32,000 nucleotides of DNA from Candidatus Electrothrix sp. GW3-4 (lineage in GTDB: Bacteria > Desulfobacterota > Desulfobulbia > Desulfobulbales > Desulfobulbaceae): positions 1,860,001 to 1,892,000 of the forward strand of contig NZ_CP147990.1 in NCBI RefSeq assembly GCF_037902255.1, written 5' to 3'. The notes under the pieces are model-generated. The model was not told the DNA's origin. It made no database searches and worked only from the letters and a program-made list of their open reading frames with translations. Both the position numbers and the translations under genes were made by a program. This document shows, in pieces, positions 2,706-9,337 of the stretch. How positions within the stretch are numbered: the first letter of the stretch is position 1; each line of letters opens with the position of its first letter.

Positions 2706-2803
2706 TTGAAACGGGGTAAGAAGGCCTTATCTCCCTGTTTGCCGCACGCCCGCTATAAAACCGGCGTTTTTGTCTTCGATGGGGATAAGGCCCTATGAGC
2801 AGG

Positions 2804-2853
2804 GCAAAAAAAGAGCGGTACGGCCTGAAAAATATACCAGGCTTTACCGCTCT
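2804..2853 (-). terminator. Rho-independent terminator after small acidic protein gene A
   Basis: Plus-strand arms agagcggta (2812-2820) and taccgctct (2845-2853) pair, with an inner ggcctg/caggc pairing. The A7 run at 2805-2811 becomes a U-run after the hairpin on the minus strand. Confidence 0.6.
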
Positions 2854-2898
2854 TGAACGATCAATGCTGTCTAGGAGCTAAACAGCATCAACAGAACG

Positions 2899-3186
2899 TC
2901 AGTCTTCGTCAGCGTCAGGTGCTTCTTCCTCACCTTCCCCTTCTTCTGCTGTCGCAGCGCTATCCTCTTCTCCGTCCTCTTCTCCCATCTCGGAGGAGGC
3001 TTCATCTGTCTCCTCTTCAGCCTCCTCAATAACCTCGTCTGCTGCGTTATCCATAGCATCTTCAGTAGCTTCAATCGCAGCATCCTCAGCTCCATCCACA
3101 GACGCTGAAACAGTCAGTGTCGTGCCAAAGCAAAGCAGGCCAGTGGCAACCAACGCAATAATCATTTTAATGGAATTACGCTTCAT
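2899..3186 (-). CDS. Small secreted, extremely acidic protein (paralogue A), unknown function
   Basis: 95-aa ORF with an AAGGAG RBS. The signal peptide is MKRNSIKMIIALVATGLLCFGTTLTVSA. By hand count the remaining 67 residues contain 33 D/E and no K/R/H. Confidence 0.7.
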   Translation of the reverse strand: MKRNSIKMIIALVATGLLCFGTTLTVSASVDGAEDAAIEATEDAMDNAADEVIEEAEEETDEASSEMGEEDGEEDSAATAEEGEGEEEAPDADED

Positions 3187-3221
3187 AATCTTACATACTC
3201 CTTAGCAGGAAAAAATCCTGT

Positions 3222-3280
3222 AAAAAAACGGCATCGGGCTCTCACTTTGACAGCCCCATCACCTTACTCAGGGATTGCCG
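3222..3280 (-). terminator. Hairpin plus U7: terminator of gene B and/or attenuator in front of gene A
   Basis: In minus sense the sequence is UUUUUUU-CGGCA...GGGCU-gucaaagugag-AGCCC..UGCCG-UUUUUUU. The outer stem pairs 3229-3233 with 3276-3280 and the inner stem pairs 3236-3240 with 3252-3256. The hairpin encloses the CCUGAGUAAGGUGAU motif that also occurs in the leaders of genes B and C. Confidence 0.5.
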
Positions 3281-3333
3281 AAAAAAACAGACGCTGTGTA
3301 ATGATCGTCATGCACTAACAAGGCATTCTTGAT

Positions 3334-3645
3334 TTACTTATCGGTTTCTTCCTTCTCCTCGTCAGCTTTTGCTCCTTCTTTGGCCTCATCAGCTACTGTC
3401 TCTTCCTTCTTGTCCTCAGCAGTTACTTCCTCTTTTTTCTTCTCCCCCATAGCGTTTGCCATAGCCTCACCGGCTTCTTCTTTGGCCTTTGCAACGGCTG
3501 AATCTGTTGCACTGCCAACAACTGCCTCTGCGGCATTAGTAATACTTTTAACAACTTCTTGGTCGGACGCAAAGGCCGTCAGGGAGACACCAAGAGAAAA
3601 CAGGACAGCTATTGCCAGAGAAACAATTCCTTTTACGCTTTTCAT
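3334..3645 (-). CDS. Small secreted charged/acidic protein (paralogue B), unknown function
   Basis: I place the start at the internal ATG (3645), which has an AAGGAG RBS, not at the track start 3681. The signal peptide is MKSVKGIVSLAIAVLFSLGVSLTAFA. SITNAAEA is shared with paralogue C, and the tail is E/K/A/D-rich. Confidence 0.75.
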   Translation of the reverse strand: MKSVKGIVSLAIAVLFSLGVSLTAFASDQEVVKSITNAAEAVVGSATDSAVAKAKEEAGEAMANAMGEKKKEEVTAEDKKEETVADEAKEGAKADEEKEETDK

Positions 3646-3813
3646 GGGTAACAACTCCTTATAAAAATAAAATAGCAACATAAAAACTAGACCTTCACTA
3701 TGAAAGCCCTTTGATCACCTTACTCAGGCGCTTACCGAAAAAGAAGCCAGAGCCAGCAAGGATTTCTTTCCCGGAAAACAGCTGACTCTATCAGCTGTAC
3801 CGTTCTGAACACA
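3646..3813 (-). promoter_or_regulatory. Conserved structured 5' leader of gene B (candidate cis-regulatory RNA / attenuator)
   Basis: The leader lies between the predicted -10 and the RBS. P1 is the palindrome ACAGCUGA-uagag-UCAGCUGU (3778-3798). P2 is an 11-bp stem (3735-3745 with 3764-3774) whose loop UUGCUGGCUCUGGC is conserved. The CCUGAGUAAGGUGAU motif follows, then an 8-bp hairpin (3690-3708) followed by UAGUUUUUA. It aligns with 4451-4622. Confidence 0.5.
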
Positions 3814-3820
3814 ACGCGTC

Positions 3821-3849
3821 AATATAGAATATAAAATAAATTTTGTCAG
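3821..3849 (-). promoter_or_regulatory. Sigma70-type promoter for gene B
   Basis: In minus sense the -35 is CTGACA (3844-3849), the spacer is 17 nt, and the -10 is TATATT (3821-3826). The same hexamers and spacing recur upstream of gene C. Confidence 0.6.
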
Positions 3850-3975
3850 CAAATAACGACATGCGCAACTATTGAATGCGACGATAAAAAATGTTTTTTA
3901 TAACCTGAAATATCCTCACCTAACCCTATTTTTCAACACATTCCACAGCATCCCGCACATTGCGGAATAAATATA

Positions 3976-4026
3976 CTACAACGTGTCGTAAAGAAGCGTC
4001 AATAACTTTCGTGAATTCTTCTCGCC
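3976..4026 (-). pseudogene. Relic of the 3' end of the PNP/UDP-family phosphorylase gene (duplication scar)
   Basis: The minus-sense translation is GEKNSRKLLTLLYDTL-stop. It aligns with the true C-terminus of the 4744-5457 gene (...SRKLLMLLCNTL-stop) and with its nucleotides at 4744-4805. Confidence 0.6.
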
Positions 4027-4092
4027 TTGTTGGCAAAATGTAAGGAAGAGCCTAAAACATCCTCTCTGAAGGGAATGGTTTTCTATGGCGTA

Positions 4093-4139
4093 ATAAAAAA
4101 GGACGATAACAGCCTGAGCAAAGATCAGCCATTATCGCC
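4093..4139 (-). terminator. Rho-independent terminator after gene C
   Basis: In minus sense an imperfect long hairpin GGCGAUAAUGGCUGA-ucuuugc-UCAGGCUGUUAUCGUCC (4101-4139) is followed by UUUUUUAUU (4093-4100). Confidence 0.55.
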
Positions 4140-4192
4140 CTCGAAAGAAGATAAGCTTAACAACTTGCTATAAAAAGAGAGTTATTTCCGAT

Positions 4193-4450
4193 CTACTTTT
4201 CGGTTTCGTCTTTCTTATCGTCATCCTTTGCTTCCTTTTTTTTCTCCTCATCCATAACGTCAACCATAGCTCCGCCAGCCTGTTCCTTGACAGCTTTAAC
4301 TGCAGATTCTCTTGCACAATCAGCGGCGGCTTCTGCTGCATTAGTAATGCTTTGAATAACCTTGGGATCGGATGCAACAGCTGTCATGGTGATACCGAGT
4401 GAAAACAGCACTGCCATTGCCAGAGAAACAATTACTTTTATGTTCTTCAT
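4193..4450 (-). CDS. Small secreted charged/acidic protein (paralogue C), unknown function
   Basis: 85-aa ORF with an AAGGAGGG RBS. The signal peptide is MKNIKVIVSLAMAVLFSLGITMTAVA. It shares SITNAAEA and a K/E/D-rich tail with paralogue B. Confidence 0.75.
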   Translation of the reverse strand: MKNIKVIVSLAMAVLFSLGITMTAVASDPKVIQSITNAAEAAADCARESAVKAVKEQAGGAMVDVMDEEKKKEAKDDDKKDETEK

Positions 4451-4622
4451 GAGAAAACCCTCCTTGTAAAATAAAATAGCAATACATAAAAACTAAGCTC
4501 CCTTCATGAAAGAAAGCCCCCTGATCGCCTTACTCAGGCGGTTGCCGAAAAAAAAGCCAGAGCCAGCAACAATTTTTTTCCGGAAAACAGCTGACTCTAT
4601 CAGCTGCACCGCTCTAAACATG
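4451..4622 (-). promoter_or_regulatory. Conserved structured 5' leader of gene C (second copy)
   Basis: The architecture matches 3646-3813. The palindrome lies at 4588-4606. The P2 stem pairs 4545-4555 with 4573-4583 and keeps the same loop sequence. The motif is CCUGAGUAAGGCGAU, and UUAGUUUUUAU precedes the RBS. Confidence 0.5.
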
Positions 4623-4629
4623 AGGGCGC

Positions 4630-4658
4630 AATATAGAATATAAGAATGCTTTTGTCAG
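4630..4658 (-). promoter_or_regulatory. Sigma70-type promoter for gene C
   Basis: In minus sense the -35 is CTGACA (4653-4658), the spacer is 17 nt, and the -10 is TATATT (4630-4635). Confidence 0.6.
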
Positions 4659-4743
4659 TAAATAACGACACGGTCAACTATATAATGTTACGGGAAAAAC
4701 AACAATGCCATCCAGTATCATATATAGCGACGAATGATATTTG

Positions 4744-5457
4744 TTACAAGGTGTTGCAAAGGAGCATCAATAACTTTCTGGACTTTCGCTTAAATTCTTT
4801 TCGGGAAAACTGTGGCTGCCAAGGCTGCCTCCAGACTTCATCGGAAACCAACATAGCTGCTGCCACCTCAATACTCCTGAAGGCAGCAACCGCACAAAGG
4901 GCGGAAAGCTCCATATCCACCCCATAGATTCCCAGGTTTGCATATTCAGTAATTTTGGCTCGGGTTTCCCGGTACGGTGCATCCGTGGTCCAGATCTTTC
5001 CGGTCTGGTAGGTCATGTCTGCTGCGGTTAGGATACTGCCAAGTTGTTCGTGCAATTTTGGGGAGGCAGAAATTGTATTTTCTTGATCATCCTGGTAATG
5101 TCGGCTGGTCCCTTCTTCAGAAAGAGCATCAGTTGGGAGAAATACATCCAAAGCGTGTAGTCTCTCCTGGAGAGAGCCGCACCAACCATAAAGAATAACC
5201 TTTTTCGCACCCAGAGCGATCAACTTCTCCAGGCACATCACCGCCATAGGGGCGCCTACAGCAGGTCCGGCCAAAAACAGTCGATCTGAGTAATAAAGGT
5301 TGGAGTGAAAGAGAAAGGAGCGCTGCATCCCGGCCTCTTTGGCATAGGCAGCCAGCACAGGGGCCTCGGTCGGGTTAACTGCCAGGAGGCCTATTTCCGG
5401 AAGAGTCGGTTCTCCCCTGCCCCGCTCCGGGTTGATGACACATTCTTGCTTATTCAT
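4744..5457 (-). CDS. Nucleoside phosphorylase-family protein (PNP/UDP type 1 fold); substrate unknown
   Basis: 237-aa ORF. LFLAGPAVGAPMAVMCLEKLIALGAKKVILYGWCGSL and GVDMELSALCAVA resemble the phosphate- and nucleoside-binding segments of the PNP/UDP/MTAN family. Its ATG overlaps the arfB stop (ATGA at 5454-5457). Confidence 0.65.
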   Translation of the reverse strand: MNKQECVINPERGRGEPTLPEIGLLAVNPTEAPVLAAYAKEAGMQRSFLFHSNLYYSDRLFLAGPAVGAPMAVMCLEKLIALGAKKVILYGWCGSLQERLHALDVFLPTDALSEEGTSRHYQDDQENTISASPKLHEQLGSILTAADMTYQTGKIWTTDAPYRETRAKITEYANLGIYGVDMELSALCAVAAFRSIEVAAAMLVSDEVWRQPWQPQFSRKEFKRKSRKLLMLLCNTL

Positions 5458-5918: not shown

Positions 5919-6254
5919 TTATTTGGGCAGAACAATCTGCTGTTCCCGGTCCAACTTCTTATTCGGCATATAGAGCAAAACCATCTTGCCGATGAGTTGG
6001 ACCAGGGCAGCACCGCTGTCTTTCGCCAACTGCTCTGCGGCCTCTTTCTTGGGCACTTCACAGTTCTGGCCCAGCTTGACCTTGATCAACTCACGGGTCC
6101 GCAGGGCATCAAGCACTGACTGCACCACATTCTCGGAAATCCCTTCTTTTCCCACGTATACGGTGGGGTCGACATGGTGTCCTAAGCCGCGCAGGTATTT
6201 ATTCTGTTTACTGTTGAGGGTAATCTGCGACTTTTTCTTTTTGTTTGTACTCAT
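5919..6254 (-). CDS. yhbY: YhbY-type CRM-domain RNA-binding protein (ribosome assembly)
   Basis: 111-aa ORF. LNSKQNKYLRGLGHHVDPTVYVGKEGISENVVQSVLDALRTRELIKVKL matches the YhbY/CRS1 pattern (L+..AH.L.P.V.IGK.G....V......AL..HELIKVK). Confidence 0.85.
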   Translation of the reverse strand: MSTNKKKKSQITLNSKQNKYLRGLGHHVDPTVYVGKEGISENVVQSVLDALRTRELIKVKLGQNCEVPKKEAAEQLAKDSGAALVQLIGKMVLLYMPNKKLDREQQIVLPK

Positions 6255-6353: not shown

Positions 6354-6465
6354 CCCACCGTTGAAACGGTGGGCTATTCTCGATCGACCCTCCGGGGCGG
6401 GGGAAACCCGGTAAACAGCGTCCCGGAGGGTCAGCCCGAAAATAGCCCGGTGTTTCAACACCGGG
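6354..6465. other. Nested-dyad, GC-rich structured intergenic element (candidate ncRNA or terminator complex)
   Basis: Hairpin H1 is cccaccg-ttgaaa-cggtggg (6354-6373). The outer stem pairs gggctatt (6371-6378) with aatagccc (6441-6448). The 11-bp inner stem pairs gaccctccggg (6386-6396) with cccggagggtc (6422-6432). Hairpin H3 is cccggtg-tttcaa-caccggg (6446-6465). H1 and H3 are near reverse complements of each other. Confidence 0.4.
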
Positions 6466-6486: not shown

Positions 6487-9033
6487 TTAAATCTCTTGCG
6501 ACTTCCATTTCACAATCCTTACCAGCTGACTCTGTTCCTCGCTCAAACCCAGCACCTTTTCCAGGATTTCACGGGGGCTGGTACCAGCGGCTCCGTGGGG
6601 ATGGAGCAGATCCAGCAAGAGCACCCTGCCCTGTTCTGCATCCAGCTCCAAACGCTGAACCAAGGGACGGAGATCAAGCTCACGTTTTTTCTGCTTACGA
6701 ATCCGCTCAATCACGAATGCATCTGCTGCCAGGAAAGCTTGGCTCGTGACAGTAAGCTGATCAACATCAACCGATTCCGGTAAGGTGCATTGATAGCTGA
6801 TGATCTGATCTACTGGTGCTTTTTTCCGAATCGCCACGATTTCCTGCACAGCGAGAAAATCCGGCAGGCTGATATTCAGGAGTTCTGCTGTCTTCTGAGG
6901 ATTCTTGATGGGCGTAGCCAGATCGATATCAAAATACTCGATATAGCTCTCAACCCCGACCGGCAAGGCCGGACTAAAGGAAACCTTGGGCGATGGGTTA
7001 AAGCCTTGGGAAAAAAGCATGGGCAGGCCGCTCCGCTGCAAGCCCCGAAAAACCAGTTGCAGGACCTCCAAGTGCCCCAGAAAACGTCCGTCGCCTAAGC
7101 GGGCATAATGAACCCGATAACGGAACACTGTTTGTTGTCCCTGCTCGGTCCGTTTCCAGGAGCCTTTTGGGGGCTCAACCTGCTGCTCCATAGCCGGAGA
7201 CGATTCTTCTTTTTTCTGAATCAGCGGCTTAATGGACTTGAAATCACAAAGCCCGCATTGCTGACAACCCTTGTTGCGGCAATCCGGGGTATAGACCTGA
7301 TCCAAGGCCTTCTGATATTCCTTTTCAAGAAAAGCACGGTCAACCCCACAATGGAGATGATCCCAAGGCAGCACCTCGTCCTGATTTCTGGGACGCAGAT
7401 ACGAGTCAAGATCCAGCCCGAGCTGCTCCGCAGCCTCCTGCCAACGCTCCAGAAGAAAATGATCTGACCAGCCGTCCAGCCGGGCCCCGGCTTGCCAAGC
7501 CGCTTCAATCAAAGAGGCCAGCCGACGATCACCCCTGGAAAAAAGCCCTTCCAAAAAGGATTGATAGGGCTCATGCCATTTTAGGCGGAAGCCTTTACGG
7601 GGCAGCTTCCGCTTCAGGAAATCAATCCGTTCCTTGGTCTCGGCAATGGAGAGCTGACCATGCCATTGAAACGGGGTATGGGGCTTAGGAACAAAGGTGG
7701 ATACCGAAACATTGATCTGGGTTCTGCCGCCCATGGCCTCTTTTTTTGCCCGCATAGCCAGGTCGATAATCGCCTCAAGATCCTCCTGAGTCTCGGTGGG
7801 CAGGCCGATCATAAAGTAAAATTTAATCACGTTCCAGCCAGCAGCAAAGGCGTCCCGACAACCAGCCAGCAGATCTTCCTCAGTAATGCCCTTATTAATC
7901 ACCTCGCGCAGGCGATCCGTGCCCGCTTCCGGCGCAACTGTGAAGCCGCTCTTGCGCACCCGCCTGATCTGCTCAATAACCTCCGGGGTCAGGGTGCCAA
8001 CCCGCATGGACGGCAGGGCCACCGAGACATGTTCCTCAGCAAATCGGTCCATCAAATCTTTGAGCAACTCAGGAAGGCTGGAATAATCACCGGTGGACAG
8101 GGAAAGAAGGGCCAGCTCATCAAACCCGGAGTTATGTATCCCCTCCTCTGCCAGCTGCATGATCTGCTCTCTGCTGCGCTCGCGCACCGGACGGTAAGTC
8201 ATCCCGGCCTGACAAAAGCGACAGCTCCGGGTACAACCACGGGCGATCTCCACCCCGAGGCGATCATGAATCGGTTTAACGATGGGCACCAAGGGACGGG
8301 TCAGCAGTTCCACCGGCGGCAGCTCTGAGACAATGCGGCGGCTGACAGCCGGGTAATCCTTCTTGAGCGGCTCGATAGCGGTCAGCTGGCCATCAGTATA
8401 CTGAGGCTTAAACAGCGAAGGTACATAGACGCCCTCAATATCAGCGCAGCGTTGCAGGGTTTCGGCACGAGAAAACCCTTGCTCACGGGAAGCACGCAGG
8501 GCCCAAATAAGCTCCAGCAGGGCCTCCTCACCATCTCCCAGCACGATCAGATCAAAGAAATCCGCCACCGGCTCCGGGTTCATGGCGCAGGCCCCGCCGC
8601 CGATGATCAAAGGGAAGTCCTCACCCCGATCCTCAGAGCGAAAAGGAATTCCGGCCAAGTCCAGCACGGTCAGTATATTGGTGTAGCAAAGCTCATAGGG
8701 CAAGGTGAAGCCAATCACGTCGAATTCAGCCAGCGGTCTCCGGGTCTCCAGGGAAAAGATGGGGAGCTTCTGCTGGCGCAGCTGCGCCTCCATATCCACA
8801 TCCGGGGCATAACAACGCTCTGCGGCCAGGCCGGGTTGACGATTGATGATATGATAAAGGATCTGCAGGCCCTGGTGGGACATACCGATCTCATAGAGAT
8901 CCGGGAAGACCAAGGCAAAGGAAAGATCAACCTGGCTGTAATCCGGGCGCACGGCATTCAGTTCGCCGCCTATATATCGCCCCGGCTTTTGCACCAGGGG
9001 CAGAATGCTATCAAGAGGTACTTTTGTTGTCAT
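6487..9033 (-). CDS. B12-binding-domain radical SAM protein fused to a DUF2344-type C-terminal domain (TIGR03960 plus TIGR03936 type, from memory)
   Basis: The cluster motif ARGCTRSCRFCQAG is CX3CX2C. The N-terminus LVQKPGRYIGGELN is typical of this family. The C-terminal ~230 aa (RYRVHYARLGDGRFLGHLEVLQLVFRGLQRSGLPMLFSQGFNPSPKVSF) is DUF2344-like. I prefer the start at ATG 9033 (MTTKVPLDSILP...); the track ORF extends to 9087. Confidence 0.85.
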   Translation of the reverse strand: MTTKVPLDSILPLVQKPGRYIGGELNAVRPDYSQVDLSFALVFPDLYEIGMSHQGLQILYHIINRQPGLAAERCYAPDVDMEAQLRQQKLPIFSLETRRPLAEFDVIGFTLPYELCYTNILTVLDLAGIPFRSEDRGEDFPLIIGGGACAMNPEPVADFFDLIVLGDGEEALLELIWALRASREQGFSRAETLQRCADIEGVYVPSLFKPQYTDGQLTAIEPLKKDYPAVSRRIVSELPPVELLTRPLVPIVKPIHDRLGVEIARGCTRSCRFCQAGMTYRPVRERSREQIMQLAEEGIHNSGFDELALLSLSTGDYSSLPELLKDLMDRFAEEHVSVALPSMRVGTLTPEVIEQIRRVRKSGFTVAPEAGTDRLREVINKGITEEDLLAGCRDAFAAGWNVIKFYFMIGLPTETQEDLEAIIDLAMRAKKEAMGGRTQINVSVSTFVPKPHTPFQWHGQLSIAETKERIDFLKRKLPRKGFRLKWHEPYQSFLEGLFSRGDRRLASLIEAAWQAGARLDGWSDHFLLERWQEAAEQLGLDLDSYLRPRNQDEVLPWDHLHCGVDRAFLEKEYQKALDQVYTPDCRNKGCQQCGLCDFKSIKPLIQKKEESSPAMEQQVEPPKGSWKRTEQGQQTVFRYRVHYARLGDGRFLGHLEVLQLVFRGLQRSGLPMLFSQGFNPSPKVSFSPALPVGVESYIEYFDIDLATPIKNPQKTAELLNISLPDFLAVQEIVAIRKKAPVDQIISYQCTLPESVDVDQLTVTSQAFLAADAFVIERIRKQKKRELDLRPLVQRLELDAEQGRVLLLDLLHPHGAAGTSPREILEKVLGLSEEQSQLVRIVKWKSQEI

Positions 9034-9337
9034 GAACTCTTTGGGTAAAATAACGGTCTCTGTGGTTTTGCAAGCGGGCTGGCGCAATCTTCATGCGGGC
9101 CGTTGCAGGAAAAAAATGTCGCCTCGCTTTTAAAAAGCCAAGGCTTGTGATTTAATAGCGGCCTCTTGCTTTCTTGTTGCGGGCTGTGGATGAAAGAAAG
9201 CAAGGGCTGGATGTTTTGTTGCGAGATCTGGCAAGAAAGAATCCACTGCTTGCAATAAAAAAGTATGTGCTCGCAAGTTGATTGCAGCATCTCGCATCTT
9301 TTCTGCGAGAGCTTGCAACGTTAATGGAAGTCGTCCT

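Follow-up and report, generated by a model that had tools for sequence, protein, structure and literature searches.

What kind of RNA element precedes a set of small, secreted acidic proteins is the question raised by a stretch of 32,000 nucleotides from Candidatus Electrothrix sp. GW3-4 (contig NZ_CP147990.1, positions 1,860,001 to 1,892,000; hereafter the window), which carries three paralogous genes, A (2899-3186), B (3334-3645) and C (4193-4450). A preliminary description had proposed that the long leaders of genes B and C, together with a partial copy ahead of gene A, represent a new riboregulator. The leader module is probably a new gene-control element, and is best described as a cis-regulatory leader RNA, a broad known class, that is unusually reused as a branched intercistronic terminator. 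The reading favored here, tentatively and at somewhat short of an even chance, is a genus-specific cis-acting leader or attenuator module of Candidatus Electrothrix that combines a leaky terminator with an mRNA structure element. From the earlier proposal, the conserved leader and the lack of an Rfam family were upheld, while a riboswitch with covariation and a standard terminator found no support.

All three genes and their leaders lie on the minus strand of the window, to which the coordinates given below refer. As previously described, genes B and C have the same promoter, CTGACA and TATATT separated by 17 nt, found at 3849-3821 (gene B; CTGACA at 3844-3849, TATATT at 3821-3826) and at 4658-4630 (gene C), with 10 of 12 consensus matches in each, and this sequence is invariant across all Electrothrix homologues. 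Leader B (3646-3820) extends for about 175 nt from just past the -10 hexamer to the ATG, and leader C (4451-4629) for about 179 nt. Leaders are about 170-190 nt long and comprise, in order, a variable 5' half with the hairpins P1 and P2, a near-invariant core, and an AAGGAG ribosome-binding site, the core itself consisting of a U-run, CGGCAA, hairpin P3, a short linker, hairpin P4 and, usually, a U-run. The end of the core lies 25-35 nt ahead of AAGGAG, and the stretch between P4 and this Shine-Dalgarno (SD) sequence is AU-rich and unstructured in all homologues. The SD of gene B (AAGGAG, 3655-3660) is likewise invariant in all of them. In leader C the corresponding parts are P1 (4587-4607), P2 (4545-4583), P3 with its motif (4524-4542), P4 (4495-4519), the U-run (4485-4492) and the SD (4460-4465). 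The folding energies of the whole leaders modestly beat those of shuffled sequences (z = -2.1 for B and -1.1 for C). A leader peptide or upstream open reading frame (uORF) attenuator was considered and rejected, since the leader ORFs differ in frame and extent among B, C and the homologues, and the conserved motif has stops in two frames. Gene callers at times extend the ORF upstream into the leader (P0005, P0007 and P0009).

Homologous leaders were collected from the contigs of related proteins, from a protein-pattern scan of GTDB genomes and from JGI metagenomes scanned with a DNA pattern. Two protein searches, the first with gene B and the second with a profile of its homologues, returned only nine related protein clusters, and the GTDB scan gave five loci, including those of E. 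aarhusensis, E. laxa and E. marina. Among the 14 matches of the metagenome scan three were real, all of them upstream of the same gene, the other 11 being chance matches in unrelated coding DNA. The protein search with gene A gave zero matches, so the set of gene-A copies could not be extended by that route. Homologous leaders occur in about 14 other Candidatus Electrothrix lineages (individual loci are given L numbers below), always ahead of an orthologous gene family, and every Electrothrix locus with the gene has one, in the three species just named, in several others and on metagenome contigs. The leader is therefore not merely the product of a local duplication, and the earlier caveat that its conservation might reflect a recent duplication and nothing else does not hold. 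The larger loci are syntenic, with genes for a radical-SAM protein, YhbY, an RF-1 domain protein and PNP_UDP_1, the small gene or genes, and a convergent PIN-PhoH gene. In both the genome and the metagenome scans, the element was found solely upstream of one gene family in Candidatus Electrothrix.

The leader was said to be at least as conserved as the coding sequence, and for its core this is borne out by the mean pairwise identities across nine loci. The best-conserved stretch is the leader core (0.93-0.97), compared with about 0.75-0.89 for PNP_UDP_1 and the gene B coding sequence and 0.27-0.6 for the spacer upstream of the promoter, and the leader element is the most strongly conserved non-coding sequence of the locus. 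When segments were compared among eight leaders, including the most divergent, L026 and L027, the 24-nt core UUUUCGGCAAYCGCCUGAGUAAGG was 94% identical in all pairs, with 61-66% identity in the leader 5' of the core and 72-77% in the leader 3' of it.

In leader B, the conserved core occupies 3714-3741 (UUUUCGGUAAGCGCCUGAGUAAGG plus GUGAU) and holds both P3 (3714-3732) and a 15-nt motif (3714-3728). The motif had been reported in three copies, and it does occur exactly three times in the window (3714-3728, 4524-4538 and 3258-3272); with up to three mismatches allowed there are seven matches, against 0.9 expected. A covariance model of P3 and P4 run on the 32 kb likewise found exactly three copies, those of B, C and gene A, and no more. 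The consensus of P3 is AUCGCC-UGAGUAA-GGUGAU and that of P4 is GGCUUUCA-NRG-UGARAGCC. P3 is retained in most sequences, with a C.C mismatch in L027 and L028, and among the gene-A copies its loop differs (GAGUA, AAAU, GAAA, GAACA, GAUA or GACGU) on a CCU/AGG stem that does not change. Inspection for sequences that might pair with the P3 loop in a pseudoknot gave none.

Of the helices, P4 has the best support. Each of its 17 distinct versions forms a hairpin, at -6 to -15 kcal/mol, and the changes among them include variable loops, a two-sided 4-nt expansion of the stem in copy C, replacement of U-A by C-G with a larger loop in L026, and of C-G by A-U in L028A. In leader B (3689-3709) it reads GGGCUUUCA-UAG-UGAAGGUCU, with a folding energy of about -8 to -9 kcal/mol, and an AG separates the stem from the U-run UUUUUAUG (3679-3686). 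In both window leaders the hairpin (3709-3689 in B, 4519-4495 in C) is followed by AGUUUUUAUG, about 25-30 nt ahead of AAGGAG (3655-3660 and 4460-4465). The P4 and U-run of B and C pass as terminator-like in a simple pattern scan, which agrees with the earlier description of a hairpin and U-run before the ribosome-binding site.

The third copy of the module lies between the gene B stop and gene A (3222-3287), and its predicted structure is the most terminator-like of the three. Here the minimum free energy fold (-23.4 kcal/mol, z = -2.97) is a three-way junction, in which a U7 run (3281-3287) is followed by an outer stem (CGGCAAUC at 3273-3280 with GAUGCCG at 3229-3235) that encloses the P3 motif (3258-3272) and P4 (3236-3256), and then by a second U7 run (3222-3228). 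The earlier report of the motif inside a structure flanked by U7 runs upstream of gene A is thus confirmed. Terminators were scored with a discriminant, d, computed from the hairpin energy and the U-tract, the formula of which is said to come from d'Aubenton-Carafa et al. 1990. The gene-A three-way junctions score d = +7 to +21 (+11 for the window copy), and the canonical terminators of the window, which are simple long hairpins, score +27 after gene A and +16 after gene C. Between genes B and A no terminator was found besides this copy of the module, which is a credible terminator. It resembles branched (three-way-junction) intrinsic terminators in being closed by a 5-7-bp outer stem, then U7-8, and in scoring as a terminator; an extra conserved branch such as P3 has no known role in termination. 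Downstream of it, a small hairpin (CAGGAUUUUUUCCUG, 3206-3220) and the AAGGAG of gene A (3198-3203) together span 3198-3220 and are kept in all gene-A copies. A three-way junction can also be drawn in the B and C leaders via UCGGC/GCCGA, and was rejected because P3 and P4 as separate hairpins are favored by 3-5 kcal/mol.

Each of the paralogues A, B and C is preceded by the P3-P4 module, whose distance from the start codon is fixed. This fixed distance, the two structural contexts, the compensatory changes in P4 and the invariant core together argue for selection on a cis-acting RNA element. Such a module would act once transcription has begun, both through leaky termination or attenuation and as a structural element of the mRNA, setting the amount of translatable mRNA for each paralogue. 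In the gene-A context it probably terminates gene B, with read-through feeding gene A, and in the B and C leaders the terminator would be weak. The core sequence stays near-invariant even where its pairing partners change, and invariance of this kind, lacking covariation, suggests a trans-acting factor over a small-molecule pocket; the core may accordingly be read by a protein or an RNA.

Several results weigh against this leader or attenuator reading, the first group of which concerns termination. Most B/C-type P4 hairpins score far below the terminator threshold (d = -34 to -73, and -52 for leader B), the exception being L003B at +14. The U-run after P4 is degenerate (GAUUAUUACAG) in L002, L019 and L010 and absent in L027-L029, and termination is therefore not the universally conserved function of the module; in L003 and L026 the U-run directly abuts the P4 stem. 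No conserved antiterminator, nor a terminator-antiterminator alternative, was found in the leaders. The 'terminator' before the ribosome-binding sites of B and C is consequently, at best, a weak and lineage-dependent attenuator, so that the earlier claim stands as to the presence of a hairpin and U-run and is not supported as to their strength and conservation. In addition, all sequences come from one genus, and their conservation would partly reflect short divergence times.

The second group concerns the structure of the leader. RNAalifold, applied to 13 leaders including divergent ones, predicted four successive hairpins, P1 (partial), P2, P3 and P4, and 92-95% of the helix cells form standard pairs, compared with 33-51% after a shift of the partners by 1-3 columns. 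However, for the structure as a whole every measure of covariation fell inside the shuffled distribution; the RNAalifold covariation term was +0.07 kcal/mol, i.e., about zero, and only 3 of the 34 pairs showed a double-sided change. An equally good fit (93.9% of cells paired) is obtained when P2 is lengthened by UCAGGUG:CGCCUGA, a pairing incompatible with P1 and P3, and in a closer set of leaders RNAalifold paired CUUCUU with the ribosome-binding site. A further alternative pairs the P4 3' strand and U-run with the SD region. None of these alternatives (P2 extension, CUUCUU with the SD, P4 3' strand with the SD) competes with P4 in a conserved manner, and none is backed by covariation. With its several GCUUUC-like and GAAAGC-like elements the leader permits many pairings, and the pairing data do not discriminate among the alternative folds. 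An all-against-all analysis of column covariation was swamped by the phylogenetic signal of the two window copies and was uninformative.

The variable 5' half holds two of the hairpins named in the preliminary description, and both proved less general than supposed. P1 is indeed exact in leader B (3778-3798), where the DNA is a palindrome, ACAGCTGA-N5-TCAGCTGT, and the RNA reads ACAGCUGA-UAGAG-UCAGCUGU, with a chance expectation for the palindrome of 0.11. The copy in leader C (4587-4607) has one mismatch, a G.U pair in the RNA. Perfection is confined to this strain, the central pair being G.G in 9 of the 11 other leaders and the left half of the palindrome not being kept in other species, and the G-to-C change to which P1 owes its perfect pairing makes the alternative P2 extension weaker. 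P2 of leader B (3735-3774) has the stem CCGGGAAAGAA / UUCUUUUUCGG, closing a strain-specific loop, and its RNAalifold consensus from the 13 leaders is CCGRCAAAGAAG / CUUCUUUUUCGG. The stem is present in both window copies and in most homologues, but the A-rich 5' strand is absent from L027 and L028, and the supposedly conserved loop UUGCUGGCUCUGGC is common only to the two window copies; other species have a different sequence at this position or an inner hairpin, e.g., GAAGCC/GGCUUC, GAAACC/GGUUUC or GAAGCA/UGCUUC. The compensatory G-C to A-U change between the window copies is real (alignment columns 59 and 90), although it is a single event in an A/U run and the covariation does not exceed that of shuffled controls. 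Near the predicted 5' end (alignment A3, columns 12-22; window region 3799-3809), species-specific short palindromes occur at one position, GUUCAGAAC in the window and L009 and AGCCUAGGCU in L002 and L008. One column of these covaries with a downstream GYUUU element (A-U in six, G-C in four), which may represent an extra helix or mere phylogeny.

A constitutive, structured 5' untranslated region (5' UTR) without switching is a possible though rather less probable account of the same observations. Hairpins in such a leader would protect the mRNA from decay at its 5' end, and ribosome loading would be aided by the AU-rich tract ahead of the SD, so that the mRNA is stabilized and the translation of an abundant envelope protein tuned. 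The strong, invariant promoter is consistent with this, as are hairpins that are kept while the U-run is dispensable in some lineages, the poor terminator score of the B/C-type P4, and the unstructured, AU-rich segment that separates P4 from the SD in every homologue. An SD-like sequence also occurs in the leader, the 3' strand of P3 with its linker (3714-3724 and 4524-4534, with homologues in alignments A3 and A5) containing AGGUGAUC, which we take to be an 8-nt complement of the canonical 16S rRNA 3' end; however, only AGGYG of this stretch is kept across lineages. Stabilizing 5' UTRs include the long, hairpin-containing 5' UTR of ompA and the SD-like 5' stabilizer of cryIIIA, STAB-SD. The leaders share with them a long conserved 5' UTR with discrete hairpins, set before a secreted and presumably highly expressed protein, and an SD-like sequence well ahead of the actual ribosome-binding site, but they show no sequence similarity to either, and their SD-like stretch is only partly conserved and mostly buried in the P3 stem. 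Nor are the ompA and cryIIIA 5' UTRs known to be reused between cistrons as the module is, and the terminator-like three-way junction before gene A is left unexplained by a purely stabilizing role, as is the near-invariance of the core, including its U-run-CGGCAA segment.

Small RNAs (sRNA) are an improbable alternative, according to which trans-acting sRNAs with a common seed, CCUGAGUAAGG, would arise from the module, one of ~135 nt from each of the B and C leaders, ending at P4, and one of ~70 nt from the gene B 3' UTR (the gene-A copy). A precedent is CpxQ, an Hfq-dependent sRNA made from the cpxP 3' UTR. The gene-A copy similarly lies in the 3' UTR of a gene for a small periplasmic protein and has a conserved sequence, a terminator structure and a U7-8 tail, its U-run, structure and tail giving it the anatomy of a terminator-proximal module. 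The three sibling copies, with a common invariant sequence of 15-24 nt and variable flanks, also fit a set of related sRNAs, as do host genes that encode periplasmic proteins. In contrast to CpxQ, the module is found within 5' leaders as well, and its fixed position before the ribosome-binding site and start codon of each paralogue points to a role in cis. The putative seed is largely paired within the P3 stem, the B/C-type P4 performs poorly as a terminator in the scoring and has no U-tail in L027-L029, and no complementary target was seen in the window.

Similarly doubtful is a more far-reaching version of the favored reading, in which P3-P4 would be a new class of riboregulator restricted to cable bacteria and recognized by a protein, an RNA or an ion dedicated to it. 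It would serve as an attenuator and as a three-way-junction terminator, perhaps with sibling sRNAs, and would control abundant, acidic periplasmic proteins that are possibly metal-handling and linked to the conductive periplasmic machinery. Among the papers searched, none on riboswitches or leader-based gene regulation in cable bacteria was found, and the passages found of a 2026 genomics paper make no mention of genes A, B and C.

Comparison with known families was made using Rfam 15, at gathering thresholds on the whole window and with E-values up to 10 on the region 2800-4800. At gathering thresholds there was no match in the leaders, the sole match in the window (Acido-Lenti-1, 6354-6399) lying outside them, and the permissive search of 2800-4800 returned only chance-level eukaryotic and archaeal families (E about 1 or more). 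The statement that the leaders could not be matched to any known riboswitch class is therefore borne out. In its layout (promoter, long leader, hairpin and U-run shortly before the ribosome-binding site) and in having a leader better conserved than the coding sequence, the module resembles intrinsic-terminator attenuators and the expression platforms of riboswitches. It differs from them in having no covariation-supported aptamer, conserved antiterminator or Rfam match, in the weak hairpin of B and C with a 2-nt spacer before a U-run that is lost in some lineages, and in being limited to one gene family in one genus.

A riboswitch sensing a metabolite or ion, in which P2-P3 would form the aptamer and the ligand would decide whether the P4 terminator forms, is very unlikely on these results. 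The layout, the near-invariant core sequence and the absence of a known family would suit it, and so would the nature of the downstream proteins, which are secreted and very acidic, gene A having a sub-threshold likeness to a small metal-binding protein family. But no conserved aptamer-like junction was found in the leaders, and there is no multi-helix junction with covariation support; P2 is not kept in L027 and L028, the P3 loop is free to vary in the gene-A copies, no conserved structure competes with P4, and the terminator is weak or without a U-run in several lineages. Restriction to one gene family in one genus is also unlike most validated riboswitch classes. Riboswitches typically recur ahead of functionally related genes in diverse taxa and have an aptamer whose helices covary, whereas the element belongs to a single gene family of a single genus and its helices are without covariation support; a riboswitch is unsupported, while a regulatory leader is plausible.

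A site acting at the DNA level, either an operator at which a repressor forms a roadblock or an internal alternative-sigma promoter, with the RNA hairpins incidental, is scarcely credible, for although primary-sequence conservation without significant covariation, the perfect P1 palindrome just downstream of the promoter in this strain, and a core ahead of gene A, which has no recognizable sigma70 promoter of its own, could all be read in that way, the compensatory changes and two-sided insertions of P4 make sense for RNA pairing only, the core is without dyad symmetry on inspection, and the left half of P1 is not kept in other species. Promoters of the sigma54, sigmaE and sigma28 types were looked for in the core by eye against the consensus sequences and rejected, as spacing or key bases misfit. 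In an alternative sigma promoter, moreover, the would-be -10 element would coincide with the most variable positions and the would-be spacer with the most conserved.

If the module is a true attenuator or a factor-binding leader, it would provide a handle on what the secreted acidic proteins respond to, as well as a small regulatory part that is native to Electrothrix. The RNA motif is one that Rfam lacks, and its narrow distribution and poor covariation support imply a modest general significance unless a switch is revealed.

The products of genes A, B and C are small proteins that begin with a signal peptide and end in an acidic tail of low complexity. Gene B encodes 103 aa, starting MKSVKG, with a signal peptide and an acidic tail rich in lysine and glutamate; the paralogue of B encoded by gene C has 85 aa and matches a Candidatus Electrothrix sp. 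GW3-4 protein at 100% identity; and gene A encodes a secreted acidic paralogue of 95 aa. None of the three reaches the cutoff of any family in Pfam or NCBIfam. Below threshold, gene A matches the Pfam family SMBP (small metal-binding protein; E = 0.003, with a score of 18 bits where the cutoff is 29) and gene C matches DUF6110. The protein family is otherwise without annotation and seems confined to Electrothrix.

Genes B and C form a tandem duplication with a unit of 805-810 bp and identities of 80-86% in the leader segments and 73% in the coding segment. At the boundary of the unit, upstream of the gene B promoter, is a remnant of PNP_UDP_1, the next gene upstream (3977-4017, minus strand); it copies the 3' end of that gene (4745-4785) with 80% identity, which indicates that the duplication took this end along. 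Only one B-type gene is present in other Electrothrix loci, so the B/C duplication is lineage-specific. At L002 and L019 (475-879), L008 (3001-3276), L003 and L005, the B-type protein has a long Asp/Glu-rich tail like that of gene A, and a separate gene A with its intercistronic module does not follow; this looks like a fusion of B and A by deletion. Gene A appears truncated in L007 (about 3330-3400). Just after the gene B stop, the sequence GGAACG-T7/8-GCAGGAC is kept in L009 (about 3300-3330), L010, L011, L017 and L007, and the window is without it; we take it to be loosely like the -24/-12 pair of a sigma54 promoter, with a spacing that is off by at least one base.

With 38.8 bits (E = 1.5e-5), the Acido-Lenti-1 RNA (RF01687) match mentioned above exceeds its gathering score of 37. 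It is found on the plus strand at 6354-6399, in the spacer that separates two minus-strand features, the radical-SAM gene (6487-9087) and a YhbY-like ORF (5919-6254), and is thus opposite in strand to both.

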